DNA of 38,200 bases from a virus (taxonomy: Duplodnaviria; Heunggongvirae; Uroviricota; Caudoviricetes): positions 1 to 38,200 of the IMG/VR virus record IMGVR_UViG_2703719355_000022, one strand, 5' to 3'. The notes beneath the pieces were generated by a model. It was not told the origin of the DNA. It was given only the letters and a program-made list of their open reading frames with translations, and did not search any database. A program made the translations under genes and the position numbers. This document shows, in pieces, positions 3,009 through 37,969 of this stretch. Position 1 is the stretch's first letter. Every line of letters starts with the position of its first letter.

Positions 3009-3218
3009 AATTGCGTTAGGCAGCGTAAGCAAGTTTCATAGTAGTTTCCTCTAAAATAATAAGTTCACTACTATTTATCAGAGAAAATTGTCTTACTATT
3101 GCATTCTCTATCTGGATGTGGGTATAGGCGGGATTGAATACGGCAAAACTGAAACATTCCACTACTGCAATAAATCACTAAACAATATAAAGAATATTGC
3201 AAGTGTGGAGTGGAACTA

Positions 3219-5105: not shown

Positions 5106-5453
5106 TTAGATGTATTGCATAAGATACCCAATAAATCTGAGTCCCTTAATGTAATAAGGTGCTGTGCCTATGCATACCGCTCGTGCATCACCAATACAAT
5201 TGAAGTTGTAAGGGTTAACTACATCAATCTCCTGCCCTACACGGAAGCGGTATTTAGGACGTTTAGCGAGTGTCGCAACACAAAACACTAACCCATTACC
5301 ATCATCGCGGATCATTTGCTTGAATTGTTTATGCTTTACTCTCTTCGCCTCGTAATCAAGTGTCATTGATTCAGGGCTAATGCCATTGATAAAAATACCG
5401 GAAAGCTGGTCGACCGGATAAGTAGGAAATTCAGTGAAAATATTTTTAGCCAT
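5106..5453 (-). CDS. hypothetical protein (115 aa)
   Basis: ORF with GGGGG ribosome-binding motif 5 nt upstream of the ATG; no recognised domain. Confidence 0.45.
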   Translation of the reverse strand: MAKNIFTEFPTYPVDQLSGIFINGISPESMTLDYEAKRVKHKQFKQMIRDDGNGLVFCVATLAKRPKYRFRVGQEIDVVNPYNFNCIGDARAVCIGTAPYYIKGLRFIGYLMQYI

Positions 5454-5491
5454 GTTATACCCCCATAAGATTCTATGAGGGTATTTATGGA

Positions 5492-15488: not shown

Positions 15489-15995
15489 TTATGTGATCTT
15501 TAAAGTCTGCTTAGTGCCAGTCTTCTTAATGTTGGTAAGGAAAGCAGCCGGAGGATTGCTTAACCAATAGTAATGAAAACCACTTTGCATACTGTTATAA
15601 GGAACAGTGACAGTAGCACCACCCAAATTAACGGTTATATTCCCCGCTCTACCGTTCTGGAGATATACAGCCATAGTAGGAGTACCGCCATTGAATTGAC
15701 CAACGATAACGCCAATCAGACGCCCTACGCCCACGTTTTCGGGGTTCTCCATAGATCCTTTACCGCGCATGTCAGTTACTGGATAGTTTGAAGCAGTCAC
15801 ACCCCAGTTATTACCCAATGAAGTAGACCACGCAGCAGTAGCTACAACCGTATCCATACCACGACCACACATCGCACTCATGTTAGCTGGGCGACTAACC
15901 TTTAATGCGTTCATTGCTGCGCTCATCCATCGTTGACCAGTTACAGAAACAGCAGATGACCCGACCCAGCCAGGCTTATTAACGACATTCGCCAT
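15489..15995 (-). CDS. hypothetical tail-module protein, 168 aa
   Basis: ORF with GGAGTAA ribosome-binding motif directly after a terminator; Gly/Ala/Ser-rich; function unknown. Confidence 0.4.
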   Translation of the reverse strand: MANVVNKPGWVGSSAVSVTGQRWMSAAMNALKVSRPANMSAMCGRGMDTVVATAAWSTSLGNNWGVTASNYPVTDMRGKGSMENPENVGVGRLIGVIVGQFNGGTPTMAVYLQNGRAGNITVNLGGATVTVPYNSMQSGFHYYWLSNPPAAFLTNIKKTGTKQTLKIT

Positions 15996-21919: not shown

Positions 21920-21949
21920 AGTTACCCCCTTTTATGGAGTATTTACATA

Positions 21950-22119: not shown

Positions 22120-24192
22120 TCAATCGCTTTTTTTCTGGACTACGGTCAGTGCGCTATGGTCCATAACAGCCCAATCCAAATCAGCCCATACACGGAAGTA
22201 CAGGTTGCCAGCCGCGCGACCTGTGGTGTCGTCGCAATCCAGTTCCAGCGATCCGAAGTCCGCAATTGCCAGAGAGCTAAAGTCACCAAACAGCATCGTA
22301 TCCTGAGCAATTACACCAGAGCCATAGATCGGACGGTTAACCAGTTTATCACCTTCTACCAGGAAGCCCGGAACGTTAGCGGCTTTCAGTTGCGCTGAAA
22401 GTTCAGCTTTAATAACACCACGAGTAGCAAATGCCAGATCAGATTCGTTAAAACCTTTGTCTGTTTGTTCAGCAACCAGTTTCAGGAACTCGGCATAGGT
22501 CCAATCAATCTGTTTAACTTTGCCAGCGTCGGTCAGGATCTTAGTCAGACCATCACGAGCGTTAGTGTTAGCAGCATTGGACAGGATCGCTTTTTCCAGA
22601 GCGATAGCACTGTGTTTCAGCATGTGCTCACCAACGATAGCACCGATGTTAGGCAGAGTGATAGCAGCCTGACGAGTTACAGGAACAATTCCATTGAATG
22701 TCTTAAGAGTCATCGGCTGTGCTGCAAACTTGATAGTACCTTCACCAGCGGATTGACCTTCTGCAACAAAACCGAAGTTTTCCAGATTGCTGGAAGTCAG
22801 AGACGGCAGAGATACCGGACCAGTTGCGTTAATGGTACGCACGCCCAATTTGCCCAGAATAGAACGTTCCATGATCATATCAACGAAGCAATCATGGCGG
22901 ATTTCTTCACCAACTACAGGTTTCAGAGATTCCATGTTCTGGCTAGCACGCAGAGCGGACGCCGGAATGAATACGGAGTTAGAACGCTGTGCACGACCAC
23001 GCGCTGCGGCTTTACGTGCTTCTTCCTGAGAATATTCAGCTTCTGCGCCAGTCAGTGCTTTACCCTCTGCGATTGCACGTACAGCTTTATTAAGATCGAA
23101 ACGAGATTCCAGAGTTTTAATGGTATCGGTCATGGTAATTTTTCCTTTAACAAAAGTTTTAGATTCGGTAGTATTTAGTGCGCGTGCTTTTTCTTTAAAA
23201 TTTTCAATAGTCACGGCACTATCTTTAATTGCGGCTTCAATTACGTCTTCGGAGATATTTAGATGTTTTCCGATAGCACGAATTTCGGCGGTATCTTCGC
23301 GAGAACGTTCAAACGGTTTTTCTTCGTCTTCAATCTTTTCTTCTTCGACTGGTTCGGATGTATTTTCCGTTTCGTCGTTCTCGTCTGTATCTTTATTTAG
23401 TTCTTCTGTTTCTTCCGGTTTAATTTCTTCTTCCGGTTCATCTTCGGAACGTTCTTCTTTTTCTTCTGGCGTTACTTCTTGCGGGTTTTCCACATCTTCG
23501 CCACTGTCAGCACTATTTCCAGAATCGGAATCAATTTCTTCATTTTCCTGTTCCTCTTTCTCTTCTTCGGAACGTTTTTCTTCATCTTCCGGTTTAATTT
23601 CTTCTACCGGAGTGTCTTTAATTTCGTCTTCCACTTGTTCACCCTCCAAAACAATCATTTCGTTGTCTGTATTTAGAGAGCGTCCAACACCCGCGTTAAA
23701 TGGATCTGCGGCACACGTTACAAGACTGCATTCGAAAGGTTGCCAGCGTGTAACGTAATAGATCCCTTTGTTAAAATCGGCTTTGCCATCAAGAACGTTA
23801 TAACCGACGCTAACTTGTGAAAGTGTTCCCTCTTTTACCTTCTCAAAGCATTCATTAGCCAGTTGGCCTACTTTGGAGAATTGGACAAGGCAACGACCTA
23901 CACGGTCTTCGTCAATACGAGCGGAGCCAGGAACAATCTTGCCGATATGAAGGTCCAGATTGTGATTAAACAGAAGACTTGCGTTAGTCTCGTTTAAAAC
24001 GGATAGATCAACCGCTGATTCATCGTGTACGAGAATCTCTTTTAATTCGACTTGCTCGCCGTCCTGATTCATGTAATAACGTGTATAAGGAGCCTCGCTT
24101 GAGAAAGCCAATTCAATAATTCGTTCGTCTTTTTCTTCGATAAAATCAGGGGTATCTACCGCAACACTACGACGGAATTGTTTTGTTGTCAT
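22120..24192 (-). CDS. prohead protease / acidic scaffold-like linker / HK97-fold major capsid protein fusion, 690 aa
   Basis: N-terminal ~170 aa resemble HK97-type prohead protease (LSQVSVGYNVLDG...WQPFECSLVTCAADPFNA); ~150-aa Glu-rich linker with internal repeats; C-terminal ~350 aa with HK97-fold capsid-like motifs (GNLYFRVWADLDWAV); ends in TGA. Confidence 0.8.
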   Translation of the reverse strand: MTTKQFRRSVAVDTPDFIEEKDERIIELAFSSEAPYTRYYMNQDGEQVELKEILVHDESAVDLSVLNETNASLLFNHNLDLHIGKIVPGSARIDEDRVGRCLVQFSKVGQLANECFEKVKEGTLSQVSVGYNVLDGKADFNKGIYYVTRWQPFECSLVTCAADPFNAGVGRSLNTDNEMIVLEGEQVEDEIKDTPVEEIKPEDEEKRSEEEKEEQENEEIDSDSGNSADSGEDVENPQEVTPEEKEERSEDEPEEEIKPEETEELNKDTDENDETENTSEPVEEEKIEDEEKPFERSREDTAEIRAIGKHLNISEDVIEAAIKDSAVTIENFKEKARALNTTESKTFVKGKITMTDTIKTLESRFDLNKAVRAIAEGKALTGAEAEYSQEEARKAAARGRAQRSNSVFIPASALRASQNMESLKPVVGEEIRHDCFVDMIMERSILGKLGVRTINATGPVSLPSLTSSNLENFGFVAEGQSAGEGTIKFAAQPMTLKTFNGIVPVTRQAAITLPNIGAIVGEHMLKHSAIALEKAILSNAANTNARDGLTKILTDAGKVKQIDWTYAEFLKLVAEQTDKGFNESDLAFATRGVIKAELSAQLKAANVPGFLVEGDKLVNRPIYGSGVIAQDTMLFGDFSSLAIADFGSLELDCDDTTGRAAGNLYFRVWADLDWAVMDHSALTVVQKKSD

Positions 24193-24235: not shown

Positions 24236-25759
24236 TTATTCATTTTGAGTATCAGGCGATTTTTCTTTTTCAGTCTCACCCTCACTCACTACGCATGTAT
24301 TTAGCATGTGTTTTTCTGCCTCAATTTCTTTAAAGACCTGAGACGGATCTTGACCCATTTCCATAATGACCTGAGCTTTAGACTTCAATCCGCTTTCTAT
24401 TAACAGAACTTCACTCTGAATATCTTTGATAGGTTCGATAGACGTAACGCGCGGCCTAATAATTGTCGTTGCATCCAAAATAGAATCGATCTGCGTCATG
24501 CGAACATTGATTTTTGAGTTAATTACCGCGTGACGTAAAAACGCCTCAAACAATGGAAGAATAACAGTATCAACTAAGCGATCTTGATGCGTCTTGAAGC
24601 GAGCGGATTCAATATTATGACCGAATTTTGCTGATGAGTAGTTAATAGAACTTGTATCTCCTGTAAGAGCTTGTTTAAAGCTAGACAGACCCATAGAAAT
24701 AGAAGTCAGCATTGCTTCATTGAATTTTTCGAAATCATCGCCGCCTTGAGTTGATTGTACCGTTTTAACGTCTTGCCCCGGTTCCAGTATATTGATAGTA
24801 CCTGGTTCGAAGTCAGTGATCATTGTTGGCGGTTGATAGTTTTCCGTGTCATCTTCACCAACATCAAATGAATCTTGATTTTCTTTATCGCTTGTGATAA
24901 AGGCCATACTACTTGCGTGCACGCGCTTACCGATTATTACAGTCTCGCGGAACGCTTCAAGATGAGCTATATCTTTGATTATTGGCAAGAAATCAGTAAT
25001 ACCACGTAATGCGTCGGCTGTACCAGGGATAAAGTAATGCAGCACTCTTTCCGCTGGGATTCGTACACGTTCGCCAGTAAAGGATTGAGTAAACAGGTCA
25101 CGACGCCTAAACCAATATGCAACGGGCTTTTCATCTTCATATTCGATGCCAGCGTAAACGACATTACCGTTATCTAAGGTGCGCTGATCTGACCAATCGA
25201 CACAATCCGCACCATAAATTGATACTTGCAGATCCTTACCATCTTCATGGAGTACCAGAAACGCATCACCACCCATCACGCGCTCTTTTTCCATCAACTT
25301 TAAGCATTCAAGGAAGTTAATCTTTCCGATGCGCGAGAATCGTTTCTGAGAGCTAGCCCAACGCCAAAAAGCATTCTCAATAGCGGTGTTAGTGGTTGCG
25401 TCCAGCTTTTCCCCTTTCATAACGAAGGTTCGAGGCTGTAAGCCAGTACCTACCACGGAATCAATAACGTGTTGGCAATAACGGGAGCCAATAGAGGTGT
25501 TTAACGCAAGATAACGGCCTTGATTGTATAGACGTGATGCGGACCCCTTAATCGTGCTGTTAATGCTGCCAGTGATGACATTACGCGCCATACTTCCTTC
25601 AATACGGTCGCTTTCAACCAATCCCAAAGAGCGTTTATGTAAGTCTTTGGTAAATTCTTCAATCTTGCGATCTACAAATAATTTGCGGTGCTGGCGAATA
25701 CCGATTTTCTTAACCGGATTCACGGGCATATCTTTTTTGCGTTTGAAAAAATTAAACAT
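24236..25759 (-). CDS. portal protein (putative), 507 aa
   Basis: Size and position between terminase and protease-capsid genes; no motif confirmed by eye. Confidence 0.6.
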   Translation of the reverse strand: MFNFFKRKKDMPVNPVKKIGIRQHRKLFVDRKIEEFTKDLHKRSLGLVESDRIEGSMARNVITGSINSTIKGSASRLYNQGRYLALNTSIGSRYCQHVIDSVVGTGLQPRTFVMKGEKLDATTNTAIENAFWRWASSQKRFSRIGKINFLECLKLMEKERVMGGDAFLVLHEDGKDLQVSIYGADCVDWSDQRTLDNGNVVYAGIEYEDEKPVAYWFRRRDLFTQSFTGERVRIPAERVLHYFIPGTADALRGITDFLPIIKDIAHLEAFRETVIIGKRVHASSMAFITSDKENQDSFDVGEDDTENYQPPTMITDFEPGTINILEPGQDVKTVQSTQGGDDFEKFNEAMLTSISMGLSSFKQALTGDTSSINYSSAKFGHNIESARFKTHQDRLVDTVILPLFEAFLRHAVINSKINVRMTQIDSILDATTIIRPRVTSIEPIKDIQSEVLLIESGLKSKAQVIMEMGQDPSQVFKEIEAEKHMLNTCVVSEGETEKEKSPDTQNE

Positions 25760-26337: not shown

Positions 26338-28266
26338 TTAAAAGTTATTTACCCACCCACCACGACGCACAGGACGCGCCATAGGACGACGATTAGGTTT
26401 GTGATGAGTGATTGGCTTAGTTTCTTCGATTTGCTCGTTAGAATGTGATTTAGGAGCTTCTACGGTTGCTTCTGGTTCACGATTCAGCTTTTCTTTCATT
26501 GCAATGAGCTTATCCCATGACATTTTTGAAAGAACATAGCGAGAAGCCGCATAGCTATAAACCAGACAGTCGAGCGCCTCGTTTCGTGTCGCACCTGGAT
26601 TTTTTACCCAACGTGTTCCAGTAACAGTACGCTTGATGGATTCACTCAAAAGCTGATCGAGATAATCATCAGGAACGGTTTCTGATATCTCTAAACCAAT
26701 ATGAGGGTTTTCTTTCAAGTTGCGTGTTAATAGCTCACGAATAGCCGTTTTACCCACGTTAACGCCCAACATAAGCAACTCATGACCGCCCGTGGTAGTT
26801 GGTTTCACTGGAATGATTGGAGCAGTACCAGATGAACTACCTTTGATTGCGTGTAAGTTCTTCCACTTACCACCGCAAATACGGTATCCGGCTTGAGTGA
26901 ATCGACCGTTCGATGTATCAAGGAAGCTGGCGAGCATAGGAACACGATCACCCGATACAGTAGTAAATTTGGTTTTATGGAAGTTGATTAATCTGTCCCA
27001 TACAGGAGATTCATATCGTTCACAGTTATGGTCGTAAAAGCTGCGATGATCCAGAATATAAATCTTATCCTTTGCCACGCCCATGATCGTAGTTTCTGCG
27101 CGATCTAATTGCTGGTCAGTACCCGCACACAAGAAAATCACGTCATCAGGGATATTCTCGATAGAAACATCTGTTTTAAGTTCTTCCAGTTCGTTTACTT
27201 CTACTGCCGTTTCCTGATCATCGTATACAGTGCCGAGAACGGTATTATAAAAACTTTGTAAATCAAATGTTTGCCACGCTTGAGAGAAGTCAGAGACACA
27301 TGCTTTGATAGAGCTAAAAGGTGAATATAGACGGCTGATCCAGAATCCTGCTACATCACTTTCACGGGTAGCTCTCCATTCACCTTGTGCAACCGCTCTA
27401 ATGCGATCCCCTTCTGACCAATCAGTCTGGCAATGAGGACACACATAACGGGCGCTTTCAACACATGGCAGATTGCGACCATCCTGATTTTTCCACTCGA
27501 ACTTAACATTTTCCCACTCGATCACCTGGTGTTTCCCGCAATGCGGACAAGGAACAAAGAATTTACGCTGATCACTTGATAACCATTGTTGATTAATCGG
27601 TCCCAGCTTAGTGGTCGGGGTACTGGAAACGATAATTCTTGCTTCATCCCCGAAAGTGGTTGCGCGGTTAGCCGCAAGTGCAATCGGATCGCCCTCTTCA
27701 CTAGCACTGGCAGCATCACATTCATCGAGCAGAATCAACGGGCTGGTTTTTGAACGCAAGGTTGATGGGCTAGTAAGCGATACCATGTAAAGAAAATGAT
27801 TAGTCTTAAGCTGAATCTGACTATTGTTATTAACAGCGTTGCGATCATTCTTGTCGGTGATTGCTTCGCGTAATGCCGGACATGCTTCAATGGCTGGTCG
27901 GATCTTCCCGCTTAGGTACTGAGCGGTTTCCTTCGTGGTTGCTTGGCCTATGATGATATTGCTGGGATCGTTAGCTATCTTATTGAATAATATACCATTA
28001 AGGATGGAAGTTTTGCCGATCTGGGCACTTGTACAAAAAATGTACTTTTTCTTATTCTCTAAGAAAGGAGCATCAATCATGCCTTTCTGAAAGCTGGTTA
28101 ATTTAATTTTAGCGCCAGCTTGTGGTCCATCCACTAGGATCATGTTTTCCTCGCACCATTCAGATGGTAAACGCTTAATTGGCGGTCGGATATGTTTTGA
28201 TACTTCGTTAAAAATTCGCTTGAGTTTAAATTTATTTGAGAGTTTTTTCACCGTGATTATCCTCAT
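26338..28266 (-). CDS. terminase large subunit, lambda gpA family, 642 aa
   Basis: Motifs [29 protein letters not shown] and C-terminal RNEALDC recall lambda gpA; Walker A-like GKTS; first gene of the minus-strand operon. Confidence 0.9.
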
Positions 28267-28268
28267 AT

Positions 28269-28281
28269 CAACAATATGTTG
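28269..28281. promoter_or_regulatory. perfect palindrome CAACA-ATA-TGTTG in the 55-bp divergent intergenic region
   Basis: Inverted repeat between terminase start (28266) and the divergent plus-strand gene (28322); candidate operator. Confidence 0.3.
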
Positions 28282-28321
28282 TATTTAGATAAATACGGGT
28301 ATTAAGATTTAAGGGGGTTGT

Positions 28322-28924
28322 ATGCTAATTAATCAGCAACAAAGAGATGAATTAGAATTAGCCTTGTCTTGTACCGATCATGAATATCGTTTGCCAGTAA
28401 AACATAAGCACTTAAAGACTGATTACACAACATCCGGTTTTAGCCGTGAGGAAGCGAAAGAGATTTTAATAGAATTTTACCGTGATAATGGTTATACAGA
28501 CGTTCACAACTTCTTTAAGAAGCATAGAACATCACATACAGAGTTTCGGAGAGTCCGAGATTGGTTTGATTTTGATATCAAGCGTTATTATCGCATTGAT
28601 GACGGTCCTATCTATCGGTTGCAGTGGAAGCCGATCCGAGAAGTGTTGAAACAGAAGAGATTGAATCACGCAATTACACGCTATCGTAACGTGGCTTTCA
28701 AGAAAGGCTATGGTGATACAAGGGAACTATTCGTTGAACTAGCTAACGTGAAATATAGCCACTATTACAACGATCCTACAGGGTTCTTCGAAGTGCTTCG
28801 CAAGGTTGATATTAGTCGGGGTACATATTATTCACGGCTGAGGAAGTACGGGATTAAGGCAGAGTTCTTTATGTCGGTTGACGACTCACCCATGTTCAAG
28901 ATAAAATCTAAGTCCTCTAAATAA
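28322..28924 (+). CDS. hypothetical basic protein with two helix-turn-helix-like repeats, 200 aa
   Basis: AAGGGGG ribosome-binding motif; two internally similar segments (EILIEFYRDNGY...FRRVRDWF and ELFVELANVKY...YSRLRKYG); Arg/Lys/Tyr-rich. Confidence 0.4.
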   Translation: MLINQQQRDELELALSCTDHEYRLPVKHKHLKTDYTTSGFSREEAKEILIEFYRDNGYTDVHNFFKKHRTSHTEFRRVRDWFDFDIKRYYRIDDGPIYRLQWKPIREVLKQKRLNHAITRYRNVAFKKGYGDTRELFVELANVKYSHYYNDPTGFFEVLRKVDISRGTYYSRLRKYGIKAEFFMSVDDSPMFKIKSKSSK

Positions 28925-28959
28925 TATTGAGAAATCACTATTGTTTGGAGGAAACTACT

Positions 28960-29187
28960 ATGACTACTAAAGCTACTCGCGGTCGCCCTGCCCGTTTTAA
29001 CGCTGAACAGATGGCTGATATTGCCTACGCTTACTATACAGCGGATCGTGGTAAGGAAGCGAAAGAACAGATTCTTAGTGAACATGGGATCTCAATCGCC
29101 CAATTCTATAAGAATATGAAGAAGTTAGACATTAAATTCTATGTTCAGATCGGTGATGGTCAGATCGTAGAAGCAACAGGTTTTTGA
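28960..29187 (+). CDS. small DNA-binding protein with N-terminal GRP motif resembling small-terminase N-terminal domains, 75 aa
   Basis: GGAGG 7 nt upstream of ATG at 28960; N-terminus TRGRPARFNAEQMADI resembles the GRPxxYxPE start of some small-terminase DNA-binding domains; too short for a complete small terminase. Confidence 0.4.
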   Translation: MTTKATRGRPARFNAEQMADIAYAYYTADRGKEAKEQILSEHGISIAQFYKNMKKLDIKFYVQIGDGQIVEATGF

Positions 29188-29263
29188 TTCTCTTTGCCAC
29201 TCTTCGGAGTGGCTTTTTTGTATATAAAACAATCTGAGCAAAACTGCGCACATCTCCATATAC

Positions 29264-29291
29264 AAAAAGCCCCACCATTACGGCAGGGCTT
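29264..29291 (-). terminator. rho-independent terminator (same family) closing the minus-strand early operon
   Basis: AAGCCCTGCC-GTAATG-GTGGGGCTTTTT directly after the TGA at 29296. Confidence 0.6.
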
Positions 29292-29295
29292 CTAA

Positions 29296-29940
29296 TCAGA
29301 TTCCGAAGATAGCAAGGTCAATACAGTTTTCACTATCAAGCAAATCACCAAGACATTTCTTAGTCTTAGGCTTTCTAACACGCGTTTTAACGGCCTTAAT
29401 CTTAGCGGTAATGGGTTTGGCTTCCTGTACCTTGATTTTTGCTCTAATGGCCTCGGCAGCAGCCATAATTTCTTCTTCTACTCTATTTCTTTGTTCTTTC
29501 TCTCTTTGTGCTTGAAACAGTGCCAGCCTCATCCATTCTATCTTCTGGTGTTCTGGATCTGCATTAGCAAGAGCATCCTTCAAACGAAGATATTCAACCT
29601 TATCCGCATCACTCAAAGAATTATAGAAAGCAAGTTCTTTATTATTTCGTTGTTCTAGTTCCTCTTCCATACGGCGAATATCTTTGACGATCATGTAAGC
29701 GATGTTAGCACTTAATCCCATCATGATAATCAACACGGATCGCTTTCCACCTCTACCTTCAAAGACATAATCACCATCGGTCTTAGTTGGCTTTTCTTTT
29801 AATGCATCCCAACATCTAAGCAATTCCTCTTCCGCCCTCTGATATGACACCTCACATACAACAGCAACCTCGCTCAAAAGCATAGATTTAACGCTATCAT
29901 CACGCATAGCACGGGTAATATCTTCAATAGTCAGGTTCAT
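29296..29940 (-). CDS. hypothetical protein, 214 aa
   Basis: ORF downstream of the Rha-like gene; charged helical composition; no recognised domain. Confidence 0.45.
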   Translation of the reverse strand: MNLTIEDITRAMRDDSVKSMLLSEVAVVCEVSYQRAEEELLRCWDALKEKPTKTDGDYVFEGRGGKRSVLIIMMGLSANIAYMIVKDIRRMEEELEQRNNKELAFYNSLSDADKVEYLRLKDALANADPEHQKIEWMRLALFQAQREKEQRNRVEEEIMAAAEAIRAKIKVQEAKPITAKIKAVKTRVRKPKTKKCLGDLLDSENCIDLAIFGI

Positions 29941-29987
29941 AATATTCTATCCTCAAAAAGCCCCATATTTCAGGGGCAAAATAAAAA

Positions 29988-30860
29988 TTAAATTCCAAAG
30001 TGTTCCAGCGATCCGACGTTCTTACGAATCAGTGCGGCAGTATTATTGACGATTGCACGAGCATTGTTAGGCTGCGGTAATTTCAAAGTTGCTCGTTGTT
30101 CTTCTTCAATCAATCCCAATTTAACCAGCACAGGTAAACAGTCAGTTGTGAACTCAAGCTGACCATGTGCTGATTGTCGAGCGTACATGTAAGCAGGAGG
30201 AAGAACATCATAGCCGTTAGGCTTACCAGAAGCATCCAGACGACGCTCAATGTGTTTAGCCTCACACAATCCCTTAAGAATCATTTGTACCTTTGTAGAG
30301 CCTCGTTTTTCGCCCAATAAACGGGTTAAGCTGTGTGCATCAATAGCTTTACGAACATGGAGATCAACTAATTGTTGATTCTCGTGAAGCAATTGTTCTT
30401 TTTCTTCTTCAAGTTTAACCGCTTCGCGCATCCAGTCGAGCTTAGTCATCTTGCTTGCGTCTGGGAACGGATTAGCTTCTTTGTTTGCCAATTCTGTTAG
30501 TAAACGTGCGTTTTCTTCTTTCAGAATCTTCCATTCTTTAATTACACGATTACGAATCGGAGTGCTATATCCAGTGACAAGAGTCATGCAAAGTTCTTCA
30601 TTCAAATGACATACCGGATCTTTAACAACGATACCTAAGCCATTGATTTTCTCCACAAATCCAAAATTGGATTCCTGAGAAATACCCAATTCTTTATACA
30701 TCACGCGAATATCACGCAATACATGACAGTGTTTCTTTCCGGTAAACTCGGCAATCTGGAAAGAAGACATAGTTAATTCTTTTTCTACAGAGTCATTTGC
30801 AGCAACCAGAGACACAGAAGCAGTTTTAACAGCGGTATTCATTACAGAAATAGCATTCAT
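29988..30860 (-). CDS. Rha-family phage regulatory protein (antirepressor-like)
   Basis: N-terminal LTMSSFQIAEFTGKKHCHVLRDIR resembles the Rha signature; start assigned to ATG at 30860 with AAAGGGG upstream (track start at 30917 is GTG). Confidence 0.6.
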   Translation of the reverse strand: MNAISVMNTAVKTASVSLVAANDSVEKELTMSSFQIAEFTGKKHCHVLRDIRVMYKELGISQESNFGFVEKINGLGIVVKDPVCHLNEELCMTLVTGYSTPIRNRVIKEWKILKEENARLLTELANKEANPFPDASKMTKLDWMREAVKLEEEKEQLLHENQQLVDLHVRKAIDAHSLTRLLGEKRGSTKVQMILKGLCEAKHIERRLDASGKPNGYDVLPPAYMYARQSAHGQLEFTTDCLPVLVKLGLIEEEQRATLKLPQPNNARAIVNNTAALIRKNVGSLEHFGI

Positions 30861-30947
30861 AATTAAGTTCCCCTTTCGGTTTAGTGATATTGATCCTCCT
30901 AGTTCCGGCATCACCACCGGAACATTTTTATTTATGATAGAAATTTA

Positions 30948-31280
30948 TTACCAATCGATTTCTACTTGGTCTTCTTCATAATAAGGAATCGCATATTCAT
31001 AACGCCAGTTTTCGATGATTTCACGTTCTTCATTAGTAAGAAGGTGATTGCTAACTGGAGTCGCATTGTGATTACCAGCTTCGAATTGCTCGCGAACTTC
31101 CAGCATTGCATGAATACCAGTTAAAGACATCAGATCAAACGGAACATGCATACTACGGGAGATAGTTTCACGGGATACGCCCCAATCATTTTCTACATGG
31201 CTAGGGGTTACAGAAACGGTTTTGCCGGATATTTTAACAGTCCAGTCATACAGGGATTTAGTGATGGTAAATTCTTTCAT
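30948..31280 (-). CDS. hypothetical protein, 110 aa
   Basis: AGAGGA ribosome-binding motif; first gene after a strong promoter; no recognised domain. Confidence 0.45.
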   Translation of the reverse strand: MKEFTITKSLYDWTVKISGKTVSVTPSHVENDWGVSRETISRSMHVPFDLMSLTGIHAMLEVREQFEAGNHNATPVSNHLLTNEEREIIENWRYEYAIPYYEEDQVEIDW

Positions 31281-31336
31281 GTTACATCCTCTTTACAAAT
31301 CTAGGTCAAATAGGTTCAAAGTTGTCAAGTGCGATA

Positions 31337-31365
31337 ATCATAAAAAAGTCAGAAAATTTTGTCAA
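31337..31365 (-). promoter_or_regulatory. sigma70-type promoter (TTGACA-17-TATGAT) for the operon 31280 down to 29296
   Basis: -35 at 31360-31365 and -10 at 31337-31342 on minus strand; overlapped by TTGTCAA-N6-TTGACAA palindrome at 31359-31378. Confidence 0.5.
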
Positions 31366-31400
31366 TACCCCTTGACAAGACGCCAAAGGGTTGACCTAAC

Positions 31401-31868
31401 TTACAGCATGTCTAAGCCTTCATCGTAGCCGTAGAAGCCATTCTGAGAAGAGAAACAGATTGGCGCGTAGTCGTCGTCATCTTCGTCTTGTTCATCTTCT
31501 TCTGGGGCTTCCTGAGCGGTTTCTTTGCCGTAGTTAAACATTGCTTCATCCAGTTCATAGACAGTAACGAAGCTCCCCAGGTCAATGTCACCGGAACGGA
31601 CTTCAAACGGAAGATCATCACGAACAATAATTGCTGGTAGATTCTGGTACTTTAAGCGTTCTTCATCGGTGAAGACGTTAACAACAATGGTCGGCTTCTT
31701 ATTACGGCAAAACGCATACCATGCACTAGAGAAATGGGATTCATCAGAGTTGAAAAGGATGTTATAACCACGTTCACGGAACATCTTCATTAACTTGTCA
31801 TTGTGAAAGCTATCAGAATCCAGACCCAGAAGGATAAAAGGAGTAGTGGTAGTCATTTTATGGTTCAT
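31401..31868 (-). CDS. hypothetical acidic protein, 155 aa
   Basis: GAGGA ribosome-binding motif; C-terminal third very acidic (EEDEQDEDDDDY); no recognised domain. Confidence 0.45.
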   Translation of the reverse strand: MNHKMTTTTPFILLGLDSDSFHNDKLMKMFRERGYNILFNSDESHFSSAWYAFCRNKKPTIVVNVFTDEERLKYQNLPAIIVRDDLPFEVRSGDIDLGSFVTVYELDEAMFNYGKETAQEAPEEDEQDEDDDDYAPICFSSQNGFYGYDEGLDML

Positions 31869-32153
31869 AGTGGAAATCCTCTAAAAGAAAGTGAATCAAT
31901 CTAATATTATTTATAAAGAGAAAATTCTTGTTATTATGGAAAGAGTGGTCTGGTAGAGTCCAAAACTGGTCTGTACTTGAAAGGTGATTGGATTCAGTCG
32001 GGCTAGCCCTCCTTCATAGATTTGATTAAATCATCACCAAAACGAAGAAGTATCTTTATAATATAAGAATCTTTCTTTTGTAGAAATAATAATCGAACAA
32101 GATGGACGCTCCCTGAGCGTCTGCGAAGCATATCTAATTCCTTCCAGTATCAT

Positions 32154-32242
32154 CAAAGTGATCTAGAATCAGTTTGTTTTAAAGTGATTGTAATACCTTT
32201 ATCTTGGAAGTGATTTAACTACCATCTTCAAAGTGATCTTGA
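32154..32242 (+). repeat. four direct copies of AAGTGAT(Y)T spaced 24-26 bp
   Basis: GTGAT cores at 32158, 32184, 32209, 32233; outer copies are the near-identical 19-mers TCAAAGTGATCT(A/T)GAATCA. Confidence 0.6.
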
Positions 32243-32316
32243 ATCATCATGTTAAAATCCCTTCCTGAATGATTCGAAGCAGATTACTCGCGCCCCGCAG
32301 GGCGCATAATATCTTT

Positions 32317-32354
32317 GTAGGTATATTGGTTTGATGGTATGTAGGTATATTGGT
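32317..32354 (+). repeat. direct repeat GTAGGTATATTGGT x2 (24-bp period)
   Basis: Identical 14-mers at 32317-32330 and 32341-32354; preceded by palindrome GCGCCC-CGCA-GGGCGC at 32290-32305. Confidence 0.6.
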
Positions 32355-32408
32355 CTGTAGGTCTGGATCGCTTCTAAGCCCCGTCATTACTGGTTTCCCC
32401 ACTTTGAA

Positions 32409-32662
32409 ACGGGGACGGGAAAGAGACGGGGAAGGGATACCACGGGGACAGGTCGGGGATAACATGGGGATGATACGGGGACACCACGGGGAAAGCATTT
32501 AAAATCATATCCTTACATAAGAATACGCATCTAATACCGGGGATTTTACGCGGGGATGGCGGGGAAACTACCCTAATCCGGGGGATTTTGCTTCCAAAAC
32601 GGGGATGAACGCGGGGACGGTGACGGGGATACATCTTCTAAAGTGGGGATATCGCGGGGAAA
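32409..32662 (+). repeat. G-rich array of at least 16 same-orientation CGGGGA motifs, first seven largely phased at 11 bp
   Basis: GGGGA starts at 32411, 32428, 32444, 32455, 32466, 32477, 32488, 32539, 32552, 32561, 32581, 32601, 32613, 32625, 32645, 32656; flanked downstream by an AT-rich stretch. Confidence 0.8.
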
Positions 32663-32865
32663 CCTTTAAATTCATTCAAATATTTTGATAGAAAATTCTT
32701 GTATATTATTTAACCAAAAAATCATCAAAAATCGCTGTAACTTAATGATTTAAAAGGGATTATCAAAAGGTCGCCGTGCTATAATAGGTTATAAAGGTTG
32801 ATAATCATTATTCGCCATTTTCACACAAAAATTTTGATAGCCTTTTCTCGCTTGGGTCAAGTGTG

Positions 32866-32894
32866 TTGACTTCTGTCAAGGATTATTTTATACT
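32866..32894 (+). promoter_or_regulatory. sigma70-type promoter (TTGACT-17-TATACT) reading into the plus-strand early genes
   Basis: -35 at 32866-32871, -10 at 32889-32894; flanked by GTCAA/TTGAC half-sites at 32856-32879. Confidence 0.55.
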
Positions 32895-33029
32895 TTTTCT
32901 CGTTGGTAGGGGTTGAAATTTTCAAAACAGTCCCCATATAGATGATAAGCAAGATTTTCTCTCTACTAAATACATGTGAGAAATGATTGTTCACTTCTGA
33001 AAATCTCCTGATTCACTGTTAATTAATAC

Positions 33030-33058
33030 AGCACTGGTTAGATATACAGTGCTTTTTT
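33030..33058 (+). terminator. hairpin plus T-run (AGCACTG-N10-CAGTGCT-TTTTTT); terminator or attenuator
   Basis: 7-bp stem followed by six T; a similar hairpin CCACTG-N11-CAGTGG-TTTT at 33117-33145. Confidence 0.5.
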
Positions 33059-33236
33059 GGTTGAATAATGTACGAATTGATTAATTATTAATCTTCTCTT
33101 TAGCAATTCGTGCTCCCACTGATCGGATATACAGTGGTTTTACAGGGTTTTCTGAAATGACTTTTATAAATAGAAGTATCAAGGGCGAAAAGCTCTTTTT
33201 ATGAGAAAAAATAATCCACATTGTAGAGGATGTAAC

Positions 33237-33419
33237 ATGGCCAGAACTGTTAAATTTACTCGCGAGATTATGTTAGAGAAAGCAAAACGCTACTTTGAAC
33301 TGACGCCGGGAGTGAGGATTGAAGAGTGGTTTAAAAATGAAGGCATCGATAAATCAACCTTCCATAAACTCTTAAAGAAATATGAAATCAAGGTGAAGAT
33401 TGAAGCTACCGTTTGGTAA
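33237..33419 (+). CDS. hypothetical small protein, 60 aa
   Basis: ATG at 33237 with GAGGA upstream (track start 33201 has no ribosome-binding motif); basic helical protein. Confidence 0.4.
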   Translation: MARTVKFTREIMLEKAKRYFELTPGVRIEEWFKNEGIDKSTFHKLLKKYEIKVKIEATVW

Positions 33420-33518
33420 TCAACTTTGACTGAGAATTAAATTATGAAACTTTTAACCAATAAAAAAGCCCCCTTGCGGCAACAAGGAGGCTTCTACTTA
33501 ACATAAGGAATTACTACA

Positions 33519-34532
33519 ATGAAACAAAATAACTTCTCTATTACCGTTTACAGCAACACCGCAGACACCGCAAAATATCAGTACGATGCAGATATCGAAA
33601 TTCGTAACTATGGCAGCAACGAAGCCGACGAATTAACTATTGGCACTAATATTTATAAAGAAGAATCTATCGATTCTCTGTACACCACTCTCTATCATGC
33701 TGGTTCCGACTGGAAAAAAGAATACCGTGGTTTAGAGCGTAAGAAAGCTACTTTGAAAGCAATGGTTAAACCAGACCAGCGCGAAGTATATGCTATCGCT
33801 TACAAGAACGGCGACGAATCCTATGTAGTGTCTATCCTGCAAGATGAAGCTGGTAGCCTCTGGGGTAACATGATCCACGCTTCCCGCCGCGATGCTAAAG
33901 GCCGTTTCGTTAATGGTAAAGTTAAAAACTTTGCTCTGGCTTCTAGTGTTGTTGGTGCATGGTCTGATTGTGCTCACGGTGAGAAATTCAATATTTCTTT
34001 CTTCGTTTCCAACAAAGCTAAACTGAATGTTAACGCTGTTGATAAGGCAGTATGGAAAGAAACCACTAAAGAAAAAACCGTTTCCAACTACGAAGAAGAA
34101 TTACAGCAGCGTGATATTCAGATTCTGTCTGATGCGCATCGTGCTTTTGAGCAACGTCTTGCTGAGATGGAACGCAAATTCGCTATGCTGATGGAAGAAA
34201 ACATTAGTCTGAAAAAAGAAATTGAAGTTCTTGAAATCCGTGTAGAAGAACTGGAAGCAAAAGAAGTTAAAGCGCCGGAAGTTAAAGAAGTTGAAGCGGT
34301 AGCAGTAGTTCCGGCAGCTACCCAGGAAGAAGCGAAAGAAGAAAAAGAAGCACCGGAGGCGGTTACTGTTGATCAGCCGATTATCAAACCAGCGTTAACC
34401 GTAGTTTCTTGTGATATTTCTGATGCCAGCTTAAACAACCTTCTTGATGTAGAAGAAGGATATAAACCATATGTTCCAACCATTCCGGCTATGGATGAGA
34501 TGGACCGCGAATTACTTGATTTTGCAGCTTAA
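33519..34532 (+). CDS. hypothetical protein with central coiled coil and acidic C-terminal tail, 337 aa
   Basis: AAGGAA ribosome-binding motif; heptad-like region around residues 190-250; C-terminus MDEMDRELLDFAA; function unknown. Confidence 0.5.
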   Translation: MKQNNFSITVYSNTADTAKYQYDADIEIRNYGSNEADELTIGTNIYKEESIDSLYTTLYHAGSDWKKEYRGLERKKATLKAMVKPDQREVYAIAYKNGDESYVVSILQDEAGSLWGNMIHASRRDAKGRFVNGKVKNFALASSVVGAWSDCAHGEKFNISFFVSNKAKLNVNAVDKAVWKETTKEKTVSNYEEELQQRDIQILSDAHRAFEQRLAEMERKFAMLMEENISLKKEIEVLEIRVEELEAKEVKAPEVKEVEAVAVVPAATQEEAKEEKEAPEAVTVDQPIIKPALTVVSCDISDASLNNLLDVEEGYKPYVPTIPAMDEMDRELLDFAA

Positions 34533-34559
34533 TTTTTAATTTAAAAGAGGAATACTACT

Positions 34560-35561
34560 ATGAACATTTACGCAATCGACAACAAAAAACTCAACAAAGA
34601 AGAAACTGAATCACTGGTAAACGTTCGTCTGACCTCCACCTTTGACGGTGGAGTTACCGCAAACTTCAAATTCACCGATAATCTTAACGGCGGTGATTAT
34701 TATCAGGAATTGTTTTCTATTCAGAATCCCCGCGCTAAAGATTCTGAGAATGTCATTAAAGAAATCATGAAACACGGTATCAAGCTGACGGTAGAAGAAC
34801 ATACTATGATTAACAGCTTCATCAATAAAACTGGTGATCGTCTGGTTTATTCTGTGGTTGGTTATGAACTTAGTGGGTTTTACGATGAAGAGAAGAAAGG
34901 CGTTGCTATGGTTGTGATTAGCCGTGGTGGCGTCGCTACTGTCTTCGCTTTTGGTAATGTTGTTCAGGGTACGCCGAAAACATCAAACGTTTATACGATC
35001 CGCATTAAAGAAAATAGCTATTGCCGTTATAATCTGGCTTTGGTGTCTACCGACGATAACAGCGTTGAACTTAGCGACATGAAATCCTACACCTTCCCTA
35101 TCGATGTGGAAGGCAATTTAGGAAAAACTGTGTTTCAATTCTATGTGACAAAACCTAAAGTTCCAGCATGTATTGAAGACCACGACCATCAAGTTTGTGC
35201 ATATAAAGCCAATCTGGAAGCGATTAAGGCCAAAGAGAAAGCAGAGCAGGAAGAACGGGATCGCCCACGTAAAGAAGCAGAGGCACAAGCAAAACAGCTT
35301 CTAGGCCGATTTAACAGCATGAAGACTAAGATCAAGAATGCTAAAACGTGGGAAGATGCGGTTAAGTTCTATCATCAAGCTAATATTCTTTTGGTTGAAG
35401 TAGAAGAAGCGCGGGATCTGTGGGCTAGCTTAGATAAGAAGTACGCGCAACGTAGATCGCCAGCAACCTTACAGCCGATTGATGAACTGTGCAAACTTCC
35501 TAAGCCAGAAATTAAACATGAAATTAAGAAAGCAAGACCTACCCTTCGTTTGGTTGCTTAA
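34560..35561 (+). CDS. hypothetical protein, 333 aa
   Basis: AGAGGAA ribosome-binding motif; Lys/Glu-rich helical C-terminus; no recognised domain. Confidence 0.5.
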   Translation: MNIYAIDNKKLNKEETESLVNVRLTSTFDGGVTANFKFTDNLNGGDYYQELFSIQNPRAKDSENVIKEIMKHGIKLTVEEHTMINSFINKTGDRLVYSVVGYELSGFYDEEKKGVAMVVISRGGVATVFAFGNVVQGTPKTSNVYTIRIKENSYCRYNLALVSTDDNSVELSDMKSYTFPIDVEGNLGKTVFQFYVTKPKVPACIEDHDHQVCAYKANLEAIKAKEKAEQEERDRPRKEAEAQAKQLLGRFNSMKTKIKNAKTWEDAVKFYHQANILLVEVEEARDLWASLDKKYAQRRSPATLQPIDELCKLPKPEIKHEIKKARPTLRLVA

Positions 35562-35564
35562 GAC

Positions 35565-35608
35565 AATAAAAAAGGGAGTCCCCGACGAAAGAGACTCCCT
35601 TTTGATTT
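35565..35608. terminator. bidirectional terminator (AAGGGAGTC-loop-GACTCCCTT flanked by A-run and T-run)
   Basis: 9-bp stem between convergent gene blocks. Confidence 0.5.
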
Positions 35609-35869
35609 AGGATCAACACAACAAACAAATTAAGGATTCTAAGGAAATTATAATGAACACTACCGTTACATTATTCTTTAAAGCCAGAAAATAACCGCCC
35701 CCTTCGGGGCGGGAGGATTAACACTAATCTATACTTGTTATGTTTTTATGATGTATAGACCATCGACTATGAAAACACTGTACTGTATGTGTTTTTATGG
35801 CTTTTAATCGGGAATCCTCAAAGAAGACCCCCTGTTAATAACCATAAGGAGAAAAGGCAGATTACATTA

Positions 35870-36148
35870 TTATTTAGTATCCTTGTTACTTAACACAAGA
35901 AACACCAGATAAAACAGAATCAGGATAAAGCACGTTTTACCAAATCCTTCGGGGTTAACATCAAACAGAATCATAGAGATTAACGCTACCACAAAACTAA
36001 TCGCTTCGATGATAACTACGATAGCAGAATACCCGATAAACGCGCCTAAGAATAATTCGTACTTCTCTTTATTACTGTCAGAAAGACCGTAAGCGGTAAT
36101 CATGGAAAGCGCGGTAATGATTACGAGATAAGTCAGAAAAATAGTCAT
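35870..36148 (-). CDS. small integral membrane protein (three predicted TM helices), 92 aa
   Basis: GAGG ribosome-binding motif; hydrophobic segments LTYLVIITALSMITAYGL, LGAFIGYSAIVVIIEAISFVVALISMILF, CFILILFYLVFLVL. Confidence 0.4.
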   Translation of the reverse strand: MTIFLTYLVIITALSMITAYGLSDSNKEKYELFLGAFIGYSAIVVIIEAISFVVALISMILFDVNPEGFGKTCFILILFYLVFLVLSNKDTK

Positions 36149-36180
36149 TTGTATTTTGCCTCTAGTTAGACAAACATCCT

Positions 36181-36226
36181 CAAAAAATCAAATCAGAAAA
36201 ATTGGGAGGGGAGCATCTAACTCCCC
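36181..36226 (-). terminator. putative terminator after the Nu1-like gene (GGGGAG-loop-CTCCCC then U-rich tract on minus strand)
   Basis: 6-bp GC stem followed by a T-rich tract on the minus strand. Confidence 0.4.
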
Positions 36227-36278
36227 TTAGACGTTGACTCGTTCAACATCTTTCTCACTATTATTTAGTATCTAATTT

Positions 36279-36836
36279 TTACGACACATCAAATTCATCG
36301 TCTTCTTGTTCTTCTTCCGGTTCTTCCTGCTTCACTTCCTCATCTTCTGAGTATTCATCGTAGGCATCAAGATCCGGTGAAATCATAATATCCCCGATCT
36401 CATTCAAACGAGCGGAAATGATATCCTTCAATGTTTCTTTCAAAGTACGCTGATCCGTTGCAGCTTCCATAATTTTTAGAGTGTCTACCGTCGCCATCTG
36501 CATCATGGTCTGGCGTACATCACCACAAAATCCGGCTAGAACTGTTTCTACATAACCTACAGGAATCAGATCATTTAGTTCGGTGCGGTTCTTAAGTTCG
36601 ATGGCGTCCGCCTCCCCTCTCGCCTTTCTTAATCGTTCTTGTTGGATCTGCGCTTGTACATCAACTTCCCTAAGTGGGCTGATTATGTTTTCAATTACCC
36701 AGGTGATTGCTCTATCCCGTGGACAACGGCGGGTATTCGTATTATACGGAAGACCACGATCACGCCATTTCTGAACAGCCGGAAGGGAATACCCATACAT
36801 TTTAGATAATTCGGTTAAAGTTACTTCTTGCGTCAT
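36279..36836 (-). CDS. terminase small subunit, lambda Nu1-like, 185 aa
   Basis: N-terminal TLTELSKMYGYSLPAVQKWRDRGLPY and central ARGEADAIELKNR...YVETVLAGFCGDV match my recollection of lambda Nu1; ATG at 36836 with AGAGGA upstream; acidic C-terminus. Confidence 0.7.
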   Translation of the reverse strand: MTQEVTLTELSKMYGYSLPAVQKWRDRGLPYNTNTRRCPRDRAITWVIENIISPLREVDVQAQIQQERLRKARGEADAIELKNRTELNDLIPVGYVETVLAGFCGDVRQTMMQMATVDTLKIMEAATDQRTLKETLKDIISARLNEIGDIMISPDLDAYDEYSEDEEVKQEEPEEEQEDDEFDVS

Positions 36837-37169
36837 GAAACTATCCTCTGAGCTAAAAATATGCGTAATTGTATTTAGACGAAATACGCAATATAACGGC
36901 CTATAACGCAATTTAAGAAAATCCCATGTGACGGGGCGTTGAGAAGTGATTTAGCTCGTTGTAGGGCTTGTTTGGTGGCTTAACTAAACCAATTTGAAAA
37001 AGGCACAAGCGAGATTTAAACCGCGCCGGGCAAAACACGCCCTCTTTTACCACTTATCACAGCACCTTTCTGTTGTCAAGTCTTTTTTATCGAATATTTT
37101 AAATTTTTTCATCTTTTTTCTCGTGCATTCATCCGTTTTTTTCTCGGTCAAAATCAATGACTTGACCCG

Positions 37170-37197
37170 TTGACACTGATCCGGTCATCAATATAAT
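37170..37197 (+). promoter_or_regulatory. consensus sigma70 promoter (TTGACA-16-TATAAT) upstream of the lipoprotein gene
   Basis: -35 at 37170-37175, -10 at 37192-37197; GGAGG ribosome-binding motif before ATG at 37314. Confidence 0.6.
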
Positions 37198-37313
37198 CGG
37201 TCACACTTTGACCATGTAAGGTGTGTTTCAGATGTGAGGATTAACGATAGATATTTACATAAATAAAGATGTGGTTAATCCATTCATCAATTTAATTCTC
37301 TGGAGGATATTCT

Positions 37314-37886
37314 ATGTTTAAAAAGATTGGTGTTATTGCTGCGGTTGTTCTGTTATCTGGTTGTGCGTCTATGGCTGAACTTGAAAAGCGTAGTGATGGT
37401 CTTTCGGCTTATCCTGGCATCAAGTATGAACAGTTTCAGGGGTATGAGATTGTAAGTAGCTATACAACTACAAAGGCAACTCGCCCATATAACAAACTTA
37501 AAATGCAATCCTGTCTCTATGACACTGTGCGTAATGACATTATGGTGCATACTGACGCATTCAATGAGATTAAAGATTTAGAAACTGGTGGTCGTATTGT
37601 TGAACGCGCCCGTTCTAATAGTGCTATTTTTAGTGGCAACTTCGAGCAAACTATTACCTTGCGTACTATTGTAGGTGACACTCCCTATACTCAATATGTG
37701 AAGTATAAAGGTATTGCTTTACCGTCCGGTGATAAGACACAGTTCACATTTACCGGATTGAGTGTTAAGCCTAAATCTGGTGGCGAGCATCCACTATGGT
37801 CACGTAAAACAAATAGCCCAGAAGAAAGTATTAAAGAACTTGATAAGCTGGCGGATGAGATTGCCGATTGTCTTAATGATGAATAA
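37314..37886 (+). CDS. lipoprotein (signal peptide with lipobox LLSGC), 190 aa
   Basis: N-terminus MFKKIGVIAAVVLLSGCAS: basic n-region, hydrophobic core, lipobox Cys; no Asp at +2; own promoter and terminator. Confidence 0.7.
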   Translation: MFKKIGVIAAVVLLSGCASMAELEKRSDGLSAYPGIKYEQFQGYEIVSSYTTTKATRPYNKLKMQSCLYDTVRNDIMVHTDAFNEIKDLETGGRIVERARSNSAIFSGNFEQTITLRTIVGDTPYTQYVKYKGIALPSGDKTQFTFTGLSVKPKSGGEHPLWSRKTNSPEESIKELDKLADEIADCLNDE

Positions 37887-37929: not shown

Positions 37930-37969
37930 GTGTCTAAATACCATCAAGTTAATTGATGAGGAACACGAC

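Follow-up and report, generated by a model that had tools for sequence, protein, structure and literature searches.

In the 38,200-nucleotide window analysed here (the whole stretch from position 1 to 38,200 of IMG/VR virus record IMGVR_UViG_2703719355_000022, Caudoviricetes), the genes for the small and the large terminase subunit, terS and terL, are separated by other transcription units. Both are encoded on the minus strand, terS at 36279-36836 and terL, the first late gene, at 26338-28266. The gap between them (28267-36278) measures 8,012 bp and holds four transcription blocks on alternating strands: plus 28322-29187, minus 29296-31868, plus 33201-35561 and minus 35870-36148. The original prediction of a Nu1-like and a gpA-like gene lying about 8 kb apart, with genes of both directions between them, was thus borne out.

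The terS product (TerS, 185 aa) matched the family phrog_57 'terminase small subunit' over nearly its full length (E-value 5.5e-18, residues 2-172), and Nu1 of phage phi80 matched the same family (1.1e-71). When the TerS family profile was aligned with phi80 TerS in hhalign, the probability was 96% (E 4.3e-9) over 107 columns covering the helix-turn-helix (HTH) and extending into the next helix. A profile of 17 family members had its best specific PDB matches in 6hn7_B (3.1e-4) and 1j9i_A (7.2e-4). The latter is the DNA-binding domain of lambda Nu1, the former the N-domain of the small terminase of phage 80 (PMC6739421). In the AlphaFold model of TerS (AF2; predicted local distance difference test, pLDDT, 76), an N-terminal winged HTH is followed by a helix of 49 residues and by additional helices, and the acidic tail, which ends in DDEFDVS, is disordered. 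Foldseek returned 6hn7_B as the top match of this model (probability 0.99), followed by MerR-family regulators; by its PDB profile and fold matches, the N-terminus is a MerR-like winged HTH DNA-binding domain. Sequence identity to Nu1 was low (27-31%), and no match was found in NCBIfam. Because of the phrog_57, phi80, PDB profile and fold matches, we call TerS a divergent small terminase of the Nu1 type, in agreement with its first annotation as Nu1-like.

The MerR-like fold also bears on an alternative in which the Nu1-like protein is a regulator of the MerR or excisionase type, acting as directionality factor of the serine integrase or as transcription factor, while TerL works alone or with a partner such as the 75-aa or the 200-aa protein. 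In line with this, terS lies about 1.5 kb from attL, the score of TerS against the Pfam family Phage_Nu1 (PF07471) was 22.3 bits and thus under the 30-bit cut-off, the fold matches below the top one were MerR regulators and excisionases, and the TerS proteins of relatives weakly matched phrog_66 'excisionase and transcriptional regulator'. The genes of the 75-aa and 200-aa proteins adjoin terL across the relatives, the 200-aa gene being undetected only in the Providencia locus L014 (compared loci are designated by L numbers). However, the Nu1 family match spans the full length of TerS and not the HTH alone, and the top sequence and fold matches are the small terminases of phage 80 and lambda. 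With 185 aa, a long helix and an acidic tail, TerS is unlike the excisionases of 50-80 aa. Its gene lies at the prophage end opposite the recombinase, and a homologue is present in a relative of approximately 30 kb in which no integrase was detected. As for a partner, the 75-aa protein (28960-29187), described in the original prediction as a second small-terminase-like protein on account of an N-terminal GRP motif, had no terminase match in Pfam, PHROG, NCBIfam or PDB sequences. It is a generic winged helix of only 75 aa with no oligomerisation or TerL-binding region, and was rejected as a small terminase. We consider it improbable that a regulator has been mistaken for the small subunit.

Downstream and upstream signals delimit terS as a short unit of its own, as had been proposed. 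A ribosome-binding site (GAGGA) is located 8 nt ahead of the ATG, and a terminator-like hairpin (AGGGGAGTTAGATGCTCCCCT) with a T-run lies on the minus strand at 36207-36227, 52 nt past the stop codon. Past this terminator follows the gene of a 92-aa membrane protein (35870-36148, minus strand), which is variably present in relatives.

The gpA-like character of the large subunit was confirmed by matches to PF05876 GpA_ATPase (2.1e-59, residues 55-297), PF20454 GpA_nuclease (3.8e-45, residues 306-577) and phrog_15 (8.9e-142); the N-terminal ATPase and the C-terminal endonuclease domain of gpA-type enzymes are both present. The true start of terL is probably the GTG at 28251, because the Prokaryotic Genome Annotation Pipeline (PGAP) calls a protein of 637 aa in the related locus L007 and a GAGGA lies just upstream. 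The divergent region between terL and the gene of the 200-aa protein (28267-28321) has the 55 bp reported before. It holds the palindrome GTATTTATCTAAATAC, which consists of two back-to-back promoter-like boxes, CTAAATAC at 28281-28288 on the minus strand toward terL and ATAAATAC at 28289-28296 on the plus strand toward the 200-aa gene. Both boxes are kept in all lineages, with a spacer of variable length.

The gene order of the window was compared with 37 related loci from E. coli (hicB and a second chromosomal site), Salmonella and Providencia and from 25 IMG/VR entries, which are prophage cut-outs and not virion genomes. In 37 of 37 loci, terS and terL share a strand and terS lies upstream, their starts being 6.3-8.6 kb apart, and a gpA-type large subunit co-occurs with TerS in every one. 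From terS onward, the shared order is the 92-aa gene (sometimes), an opposite-strand unit ending in a protein of 59-72 aa and a non-coding hub of 1.2-1.4 kb; from the hub to terL it continues with a 155-aa-like gene, a 110-aa gene (sometimes), a Rha-like gene, a 214-aa gene (sometimes), the opposite-strand 75-aa and 200-aa genes and terL. No other small subunit was found beside terL in any relative examined. Nu1 genes usually lie directly upstream of the large-subunit gene and are co-transcribed with it; here, opposite-strand genes and terminators stand between the two throughout the clade. The lack of adjacency is a trait of gene order, not of the protein. Since the split is found in all related loci and in a distant relative, it is a trait of the clade and not a local rearrangement, and the comparison of related phages proposed along with the original prediction thus showed it to be kept. 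Related DNA was detected in 63 of 5426 complete E. coli genomes, and a scan of GTDB species representatives returned no relative.

Approximately 260 bp upstream of terS are conserved in every lineage, and the genes beyond differ completely. Identity between lineages was 46-58% from -260 to -1 and about 61% in the terS coding sequence, compared with 26% farther upstream; similarity stops at about -260. The part next to terS (36862-36911, minus strand) contains the direct repeats TTGCGTTA (36911-36904) and TTGCGTA (36891-36885), a promoter-like box CTAAATAC (36878-36871) and the inverted repeat TTACGCA (36868-36862), the three repeats falling between -26 and -75. The pattern TTGCGTA-N9-[A/C]TAAATA-N3-4-TTACGCA is kept in the E. 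coli, Salmonella and Providencia lineages. Judged by these motifs, the proximal region is a candidate cosB-like binding site of TerS and/or an operator. Farther upstream, a distal conserved block (36980-37096, minus strand) includes a GC-rich dyad (GAGGGCGTGTTTTGCCCGGCGCGG, 37044-37021) at -185 to -208 from the terS ATG, as well as AGGTGCTGT (37067-37059) and TTGACA (37079-37074). A T-rich/GGTT.AGTT segment is conserved between the dyad and the proximal repeats.

This layout was compared with phi80, in which the cohesive end is at 1-12, inverted repeats are at 109-118 and 156-165 and the Nu1 ATG is at 190. The cohesive end is located 178-189 nt and the inverted Nu1-site repeats 25-81 nt ahead of that ATG. 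Because the layout of the conserved block matches that of phi80, we infer that cos stayed with terS; by the same analogy, the distal block is a candidate cosN region. The region 36900-37150, earlier singled out as a possible binding region of the Nu1-like protein, overlaps the cos-like block (36862-37096), the role of which as cos is putative. The location of the packaging site, previously described as unclear, is thereby narrowed to a specific predicted, if unproven, site upstream of terS.

The block might instead serve only as promoter and operator of terS, possibly with autoregulation, and the packaging site might be elsewhere: inside terS as in many pac phages, near terL, or past the lysis genes. 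The site used by the two subunits would in that case be indicated by the position of neither terS nor terL. The promoter-like box has TTGCGTA/TACGCAA repeats on either side, just as expected of an operator, and the Nu1 fold resembles that of MerR regulators, which bind palindromes within promoters. Yet the conservation runs about 200 bp past the putative promoter, to -260, and includes the GC-rich dyad at the phi80 cosN distance from the ATG. Near terL, the 55-bp upstream region has space for two boxes only. To our knowledge, the gpA/Nu1 enzymes studied so far are cos enzymes, the small subunit of which binds beside the nick site in lambda. An exclusively regulatory role of the block is rather unlikely in our view.

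A further place for the packaging site was sought in the non-coding hub between the two terminase genes (1.3 kb, 31869-33200). It carries about 20 CGGGGA repeats in two clusters with an 11-bp phase (about 32390-32670) and is flanked by divergent TATAAATA/sigma-70-like promoters. The phased repeats look like a wrapping array, and their placement between both terminase genes would suit a model in which they are wrapped around a TerS oligomer and DNA is packaged from there; the hub had been named as a possible TerS target. At the same place, other lineages have arrays of TTGCCCCT, ATCCCTAG or ACCTACACT, compared with TCCCCG in the window. These repeat units do not track the TerS allele. Locus L028 has repeats of the window type and 99%-identical 333-aa and 337-aa hub-side proteins, yet its TerS is only 54% identical; in L016, TerS is 98% identical and the repeats are mostly of other types; and one TerS type occurs with either TTGCCCCT or CCTACACT arrays. 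Since the repeats are uncoupled from the TerS allele and the DNA-binding domain of TerS hardly varies from lineage to lineage, the hub was rejected as the TerS site, and a packaging site within it is very improbable and largely refuted by this comparison.

The 333-aa and 337-aa proteins, in contrast, travel with the CGGGGA repeat type (L028, L007, L002). The hub is probably an origin or a regulatory array; going by its repeats, the array appears matched to the neighbouring proteins of 315-337 aa and looks like an origin with a matched initiator module, none of these proteins belonging to a recognisable family. Lineage-specific phased arrays with the units CGGGGA, TTTTGCCCC, TATCCCTAG and ACCTACACTA were observed in the window hub and at L008:13062-13257, L011:13420-13691 and L014:14200-14340.

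In every lineage, a box of the form [A/C]TAAATA[A/C] stands ahead of terS and of terL, at a distance of 30-42 nt from the start codon. Within the window, boxes are positioned 26-42 nt before the starts of terS (36871-36878), terL (28281-28288), the 200-aa gene (28289-28296), a 76-aa moron, the head-tail gene (start at 21919) and a 115-aa gene ahead of the endolysin. The 8-mer CTAAATAC was counted 8 times (1.8 expected), a number reached in 0 of 100 shuffles. Its core TAAATAC has 11 copies, every one oriented with the downstream genes, and more of them lie ahead of internal starts in the capsid fusion gene. The sites of the cTAAATAC box are 5250-5257, 5481-5487, 21939-21945, 23171-23178, 23669-23676, 24297-24304, 28281-28296, 32966-32973, 36871-36878 and 37934-37941. 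L007 was annotated independently, and there half of the TAAATAC copies (6 of 12), those of terS and terL included, end at a distance of 18-33 nt from a downstream PGAP start codon; permuted 7-mers gave a mean of 0.43 and a maximum of 2, apart from the overlapping CTAAATA. This distribution points to a -10-like element shared by a single class of phage promoters. The T4-type late promoter TATAAATA is close to the [A/C]TAAATA[A/C] box (PMC2984593), and exact copies of TATAAATA are present ahead of the two units diverging from the hub (31908-31915, minus; 33165-33172, plus). The control of subunit stoichiometry, which had been called unclear, can be narrowed to a shared promoter-like box ahead of terS and terL, an unproven point of control.

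The alleles of the two genes have been reassorted: a single TerS type is paired with TerL variants sharing either 55-57% or 80-87% identity with TerL of the window. TerS of all E. coli and Salmonella lineages has an acidic tail ending in EFDVS or EFDLS, and all TerL variants share the basic N-terminal motif M-K-x-(I/L)-(S/T)-N-K-x-K-L-(K/R)-x-I (in the form MKxISNKxKLKKI). In lambda, the N-terminus of gpA is bound by the C-terminus of Nu1. By analogy, the TerS tail and the TerL N-terminus, both preserved among the reassorted allele pairs, are a likely contact point.

Taken together, we propose that packaging is carried out by a lambda-type terminase of two subunits, the Nu1-like TerS and the gpA-like TerL. 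terS and cos, within the approximately 260 bp upstream, would have been kept as a unit, and terL would have been displaced across an early, regulatory and replication module. Nicking would take place at the GC-rich dyad, some 190-200 bp upstream, and the direct and inverted TTGCGTA repeats just ahead of terS would be bound by TerS in the manner of cosB. terS would be expressed as a short unit of promoter-like box, ribosome-binding site, gene and terminator. Because the same kind of box precedes terS and terL, the two genes, each read from its own promoter, would be activated jointly. Contact between the subunits would then be made by the acidic tail of TerS (...DDEFDVS) and the basic N-terminus of TerL. 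As a speculative last step, TerS may limit its own synthesis, because TerS-type repeats flank the terS box.

Several observations weigh against this proposal. In addition to the sub-threshold Pfam score of TerS, the assignment of cos derives from position and analogy, the sequence of the GC-rich dyad is only loosely conserved, and the cos-like block showed no special single-strand fold. The outlier lineage L017 keeps the distal block without the proximal repeats. For the box, the TAAATAC 7-mer count by itself is not over-represented (11 copies, 7.9 expected), only the 8-mer form and the positions being unusual; no -35 element or activator was identified for it, nor any sigma factor or activator in the phage. 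In the 30-kb relative, the contigs L045 and L048, assembled from independent sequencing runs (SRR30884460 and SRR22355887), have an identical first base, which lies 205 nt ahead of terS and just after the hairpin CCGGGGGCCCCCTCCCCGGG; this shared start is equally explained by a physical genome end and by a drop in coverage at the GC hairpin. On balance, we favour with moderate confidence the retention of a cos-terS unit and the displacement and co-regulation of terL.

If the repeats forming cosB also bracket the promoter box of terS, the packaging site could double as the terS operator, with free TerS shutting off its own gene. We put this forward as a doubtful extension. If true, autorepression by TerS would stand in for the coupling, translational as well as transcriptional, that disappeared with the separation of the two genes, and the alleles of both could then reassort freely. 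In a bolder variant, a superinfecting T-even phage might read the late genes of this phage with its own late-transcription machinery, because the boxes before terS, terL and the head and lysis genes are near the T4-type late promoter TATAAATA and the phage has T-even-derived genes (uvsW and a gp38-like domain).

The remaining units between terS and terL are as follows. The plus-strand block 28322-29187 encodes the 200-aa protein (28322-28924) and the 75-aa winged-helix protein, lies antisense between the early-left operon and terL and has a terminator behind the 75-aa gene (29196-29213). Neither of the two proteins matched any terminase, and neither is regarded as a terminase subunit. The model of the 75-aa protein (AF2, pLDDT 79) is a winged helix of three helices and a beta-hairpin; its best fold matches, winged helices of the ArgR/AhrC and DtxR types, were non-significant (E > 0.3). 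Homologues are confined to this prophage family. The protein is a weak paralogue of the 72-aa protein encoded at 33201-33419 (30% identity, E 3e-6) and may share ancestry with the C-terminal part of the 200-aa protein encoded next to it (hhalign 58%). Judging from the model, it is probably a small DNA-binding regulator. The leftward early operon (29296-31868, minus strand) encodes, in conserved order, the 155-aa, 110-aa, Rha/Ant-like (29988-30917; PF09669 8.3e-12, phrog_63 1.7e-17) and 214-aa proteins. The rightward unit (33201-35561, plus strand) starts with the 72-aa paralogue, which is followed by the 337-aa and 333-aa proteins without assigned function.

The window represents a temperate siphophage prophage of approximately 40 kb inserted in E. 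coli hicB by a large serine recombinase. The exact TerS protein was found on E. coli chromosomal contigs with the flanks ydcO-sutR-rlhA-yncJ-hicA-hicB, and in the copy of strain RMDEC332 (GCF_058153575.1; L007, 97% identical) hicB is broken into two annotated fragments 40 kb apart. From the split hicB and the E. coli flanks it therefore follows that the window is an integrated temperate siphophage. The fragments surround the prophage at L007:5594-5905 and 46324-46443, and the hicA toxin gene is intact alongside. No near match to the window was found among cultured phages, and Rfam had no match within it.

The late operon occupies the minus strand between 28266 and about 5100 and runs head-to-tail. 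terL is followed by the head genes, encoding a head-tail joining protein, a lambda-B-type portal and a 690-aa protease-scaffold-capsid fusion, and by tail and lysis genes on the same strand for a lambda-like tail tube, a gpT-like chaperone, a tape measure, DUF2163, DUF6950 and tail-tip proteins, a gp38-like adhesin domain and an M15 endolysin. The 690-aa open reading frame (ORF; 22120-24192, minus strand) joins the major capsid domain to a protease-like N-terminal part and a middle that is very acidic and scaffold-like. TAAATAC boxes and ribosome-binding sites ahead of internal in-frame starts near 23630 and 23129 suggest nested scaffold and capsid products.

A uvsW-type helicase gene and a large serine recombinase gene are located to the left of the late operon, at the prophage end opposite terS. 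The uvsW gene (3210-4709, plus strand; PF21241 UvsW_N 1.4e-34) has 79-87% nucleotide identity to RB49-like T-even phages, which suggests that a temperate siphophage and virulent T4-like phages exchanged genes recently; the N-domain of the gp38 adhesin (15489-15995) points in the same direction. Past the recombinase (235-944, plus strand) there are two small ORFs (phrog_6147 2.7e-33 and phrog_14908 1.4e-19), the homologues of which are mostly from virulent phages (T4-like phages, other large lytic coliphages and Campylobacter phages). An insertion of the phage in a T4-like phage genome, prompted by the uvsW identity (80-87% to RB49-like phages) and a match to the 'Escherichia phage DCP80' record, was rejected on account of the E. 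coli flanks and the split hicB, and because the DCP80 record is apparently a scrambled scaffold with a separate phage in its first 30 kb or so.

At the end of the prophage next to terS, a lipoprotein gene (37314-37886, plus strand) is driven by a perfect sigma-70 consensus promoter (TTGACA-16-TATAAT, 37170-37197) and is likely a lysogenic-conversion or exclusion moron, present only in this lineage. Five GGTCA/TGACC repeats surround this promoter (37150-37215). They were discarded as a cosB candidate, as they overlap the sigma-70 promoter of the moron and are absent from other lineages.

The nearest sequenced relative is a phage of approximately 30 kb in the 'Escherichia phage DCP80' record, with 45% (TerL) and 28% (TerS) identity to the window. 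It was also recovered as stand-alone metagenome contigs of 30,478 and 29,973 bp. It has the same head and tail gene set, and its terS and terL are split by its early region, with about 4.4 kb of opposite-strand small genes and 1.4 kb of non-coding DNA. Unlike the window, it is smaller, and its late strand ends with the lysis genes followed directly by terS; TTGCGTA repeats and a TAAATAC box were not found ahead of its terS. In the DCP80 record itself (L001, PQ671644.1; 141-kb 'Gaprivervirus'), positions of about 1-30,400 are this complete, unrelated phage (also L043 and L044). The record appears to be a scrambled, mis-scaffolded mixture, because the T4 gene order is jumbled and the protein accessions are out of order.

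The clade described here, enterobacterial temperate phages present in about 1% of complete E. coli genomes and lacking a characterised isolate, has broken the linkage of Nu1, gpA and cos. It offers a natural system for studying how the supply of the subunits is balanced without coupling, whether cos must stay with the small-subunit gene, and how much mixing of alleles is tolerated at the TerS-TerL interface. In practice, prophage annotators and packaging-type predictors that seek terS beside terL miss terS here. Our literature search found no report of split terS and terL genes in Nu1/gpA (lambda-like) systems or of this prophage family.

Nu1/gpA terminases are textbook examples of adjacent, overlapping and co-transcribed packaging genes right behind cos. 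Lambda and phi80 share with the window a Nu1-type TerS with an N-terminal winged HTH, a gpA-type TerL with ATPase and nuclease domains, repeats (one of them inverted) within about 80 bp of the small-subunit ATG and a GC-rich element about 190 bp upstream. In lambda and phi80, however, the genes overlap and one late transcript crosses cos. In the window, the entire early region fills the 8 kb between them; terS is equipped with a promoter-like box and a terminator of its own, and the alleles of the two genes reassort. T7-like phages and some mycobacteriophages also have split terminase genes. By analogy of arrangement, P2 is the closest precedent for the co-regulation of split terminase genes: the genes of gpM (small) and gpP (large) are in separate units with divergent promoters of the same class and a shared activator site, and cos is not between them. 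In contrast to the window, the small subunit of P2 is unrelated (phrog_74, not phrog_57), and its genes are only 2.2 kb apart with head genes and not an early region between them. Compared with these systems, the gene order of the window is unusual yet explainable and is not a new mechanism; the proteins are of the lambda Nu1/gpA kind, and it is their arrangement that differs.

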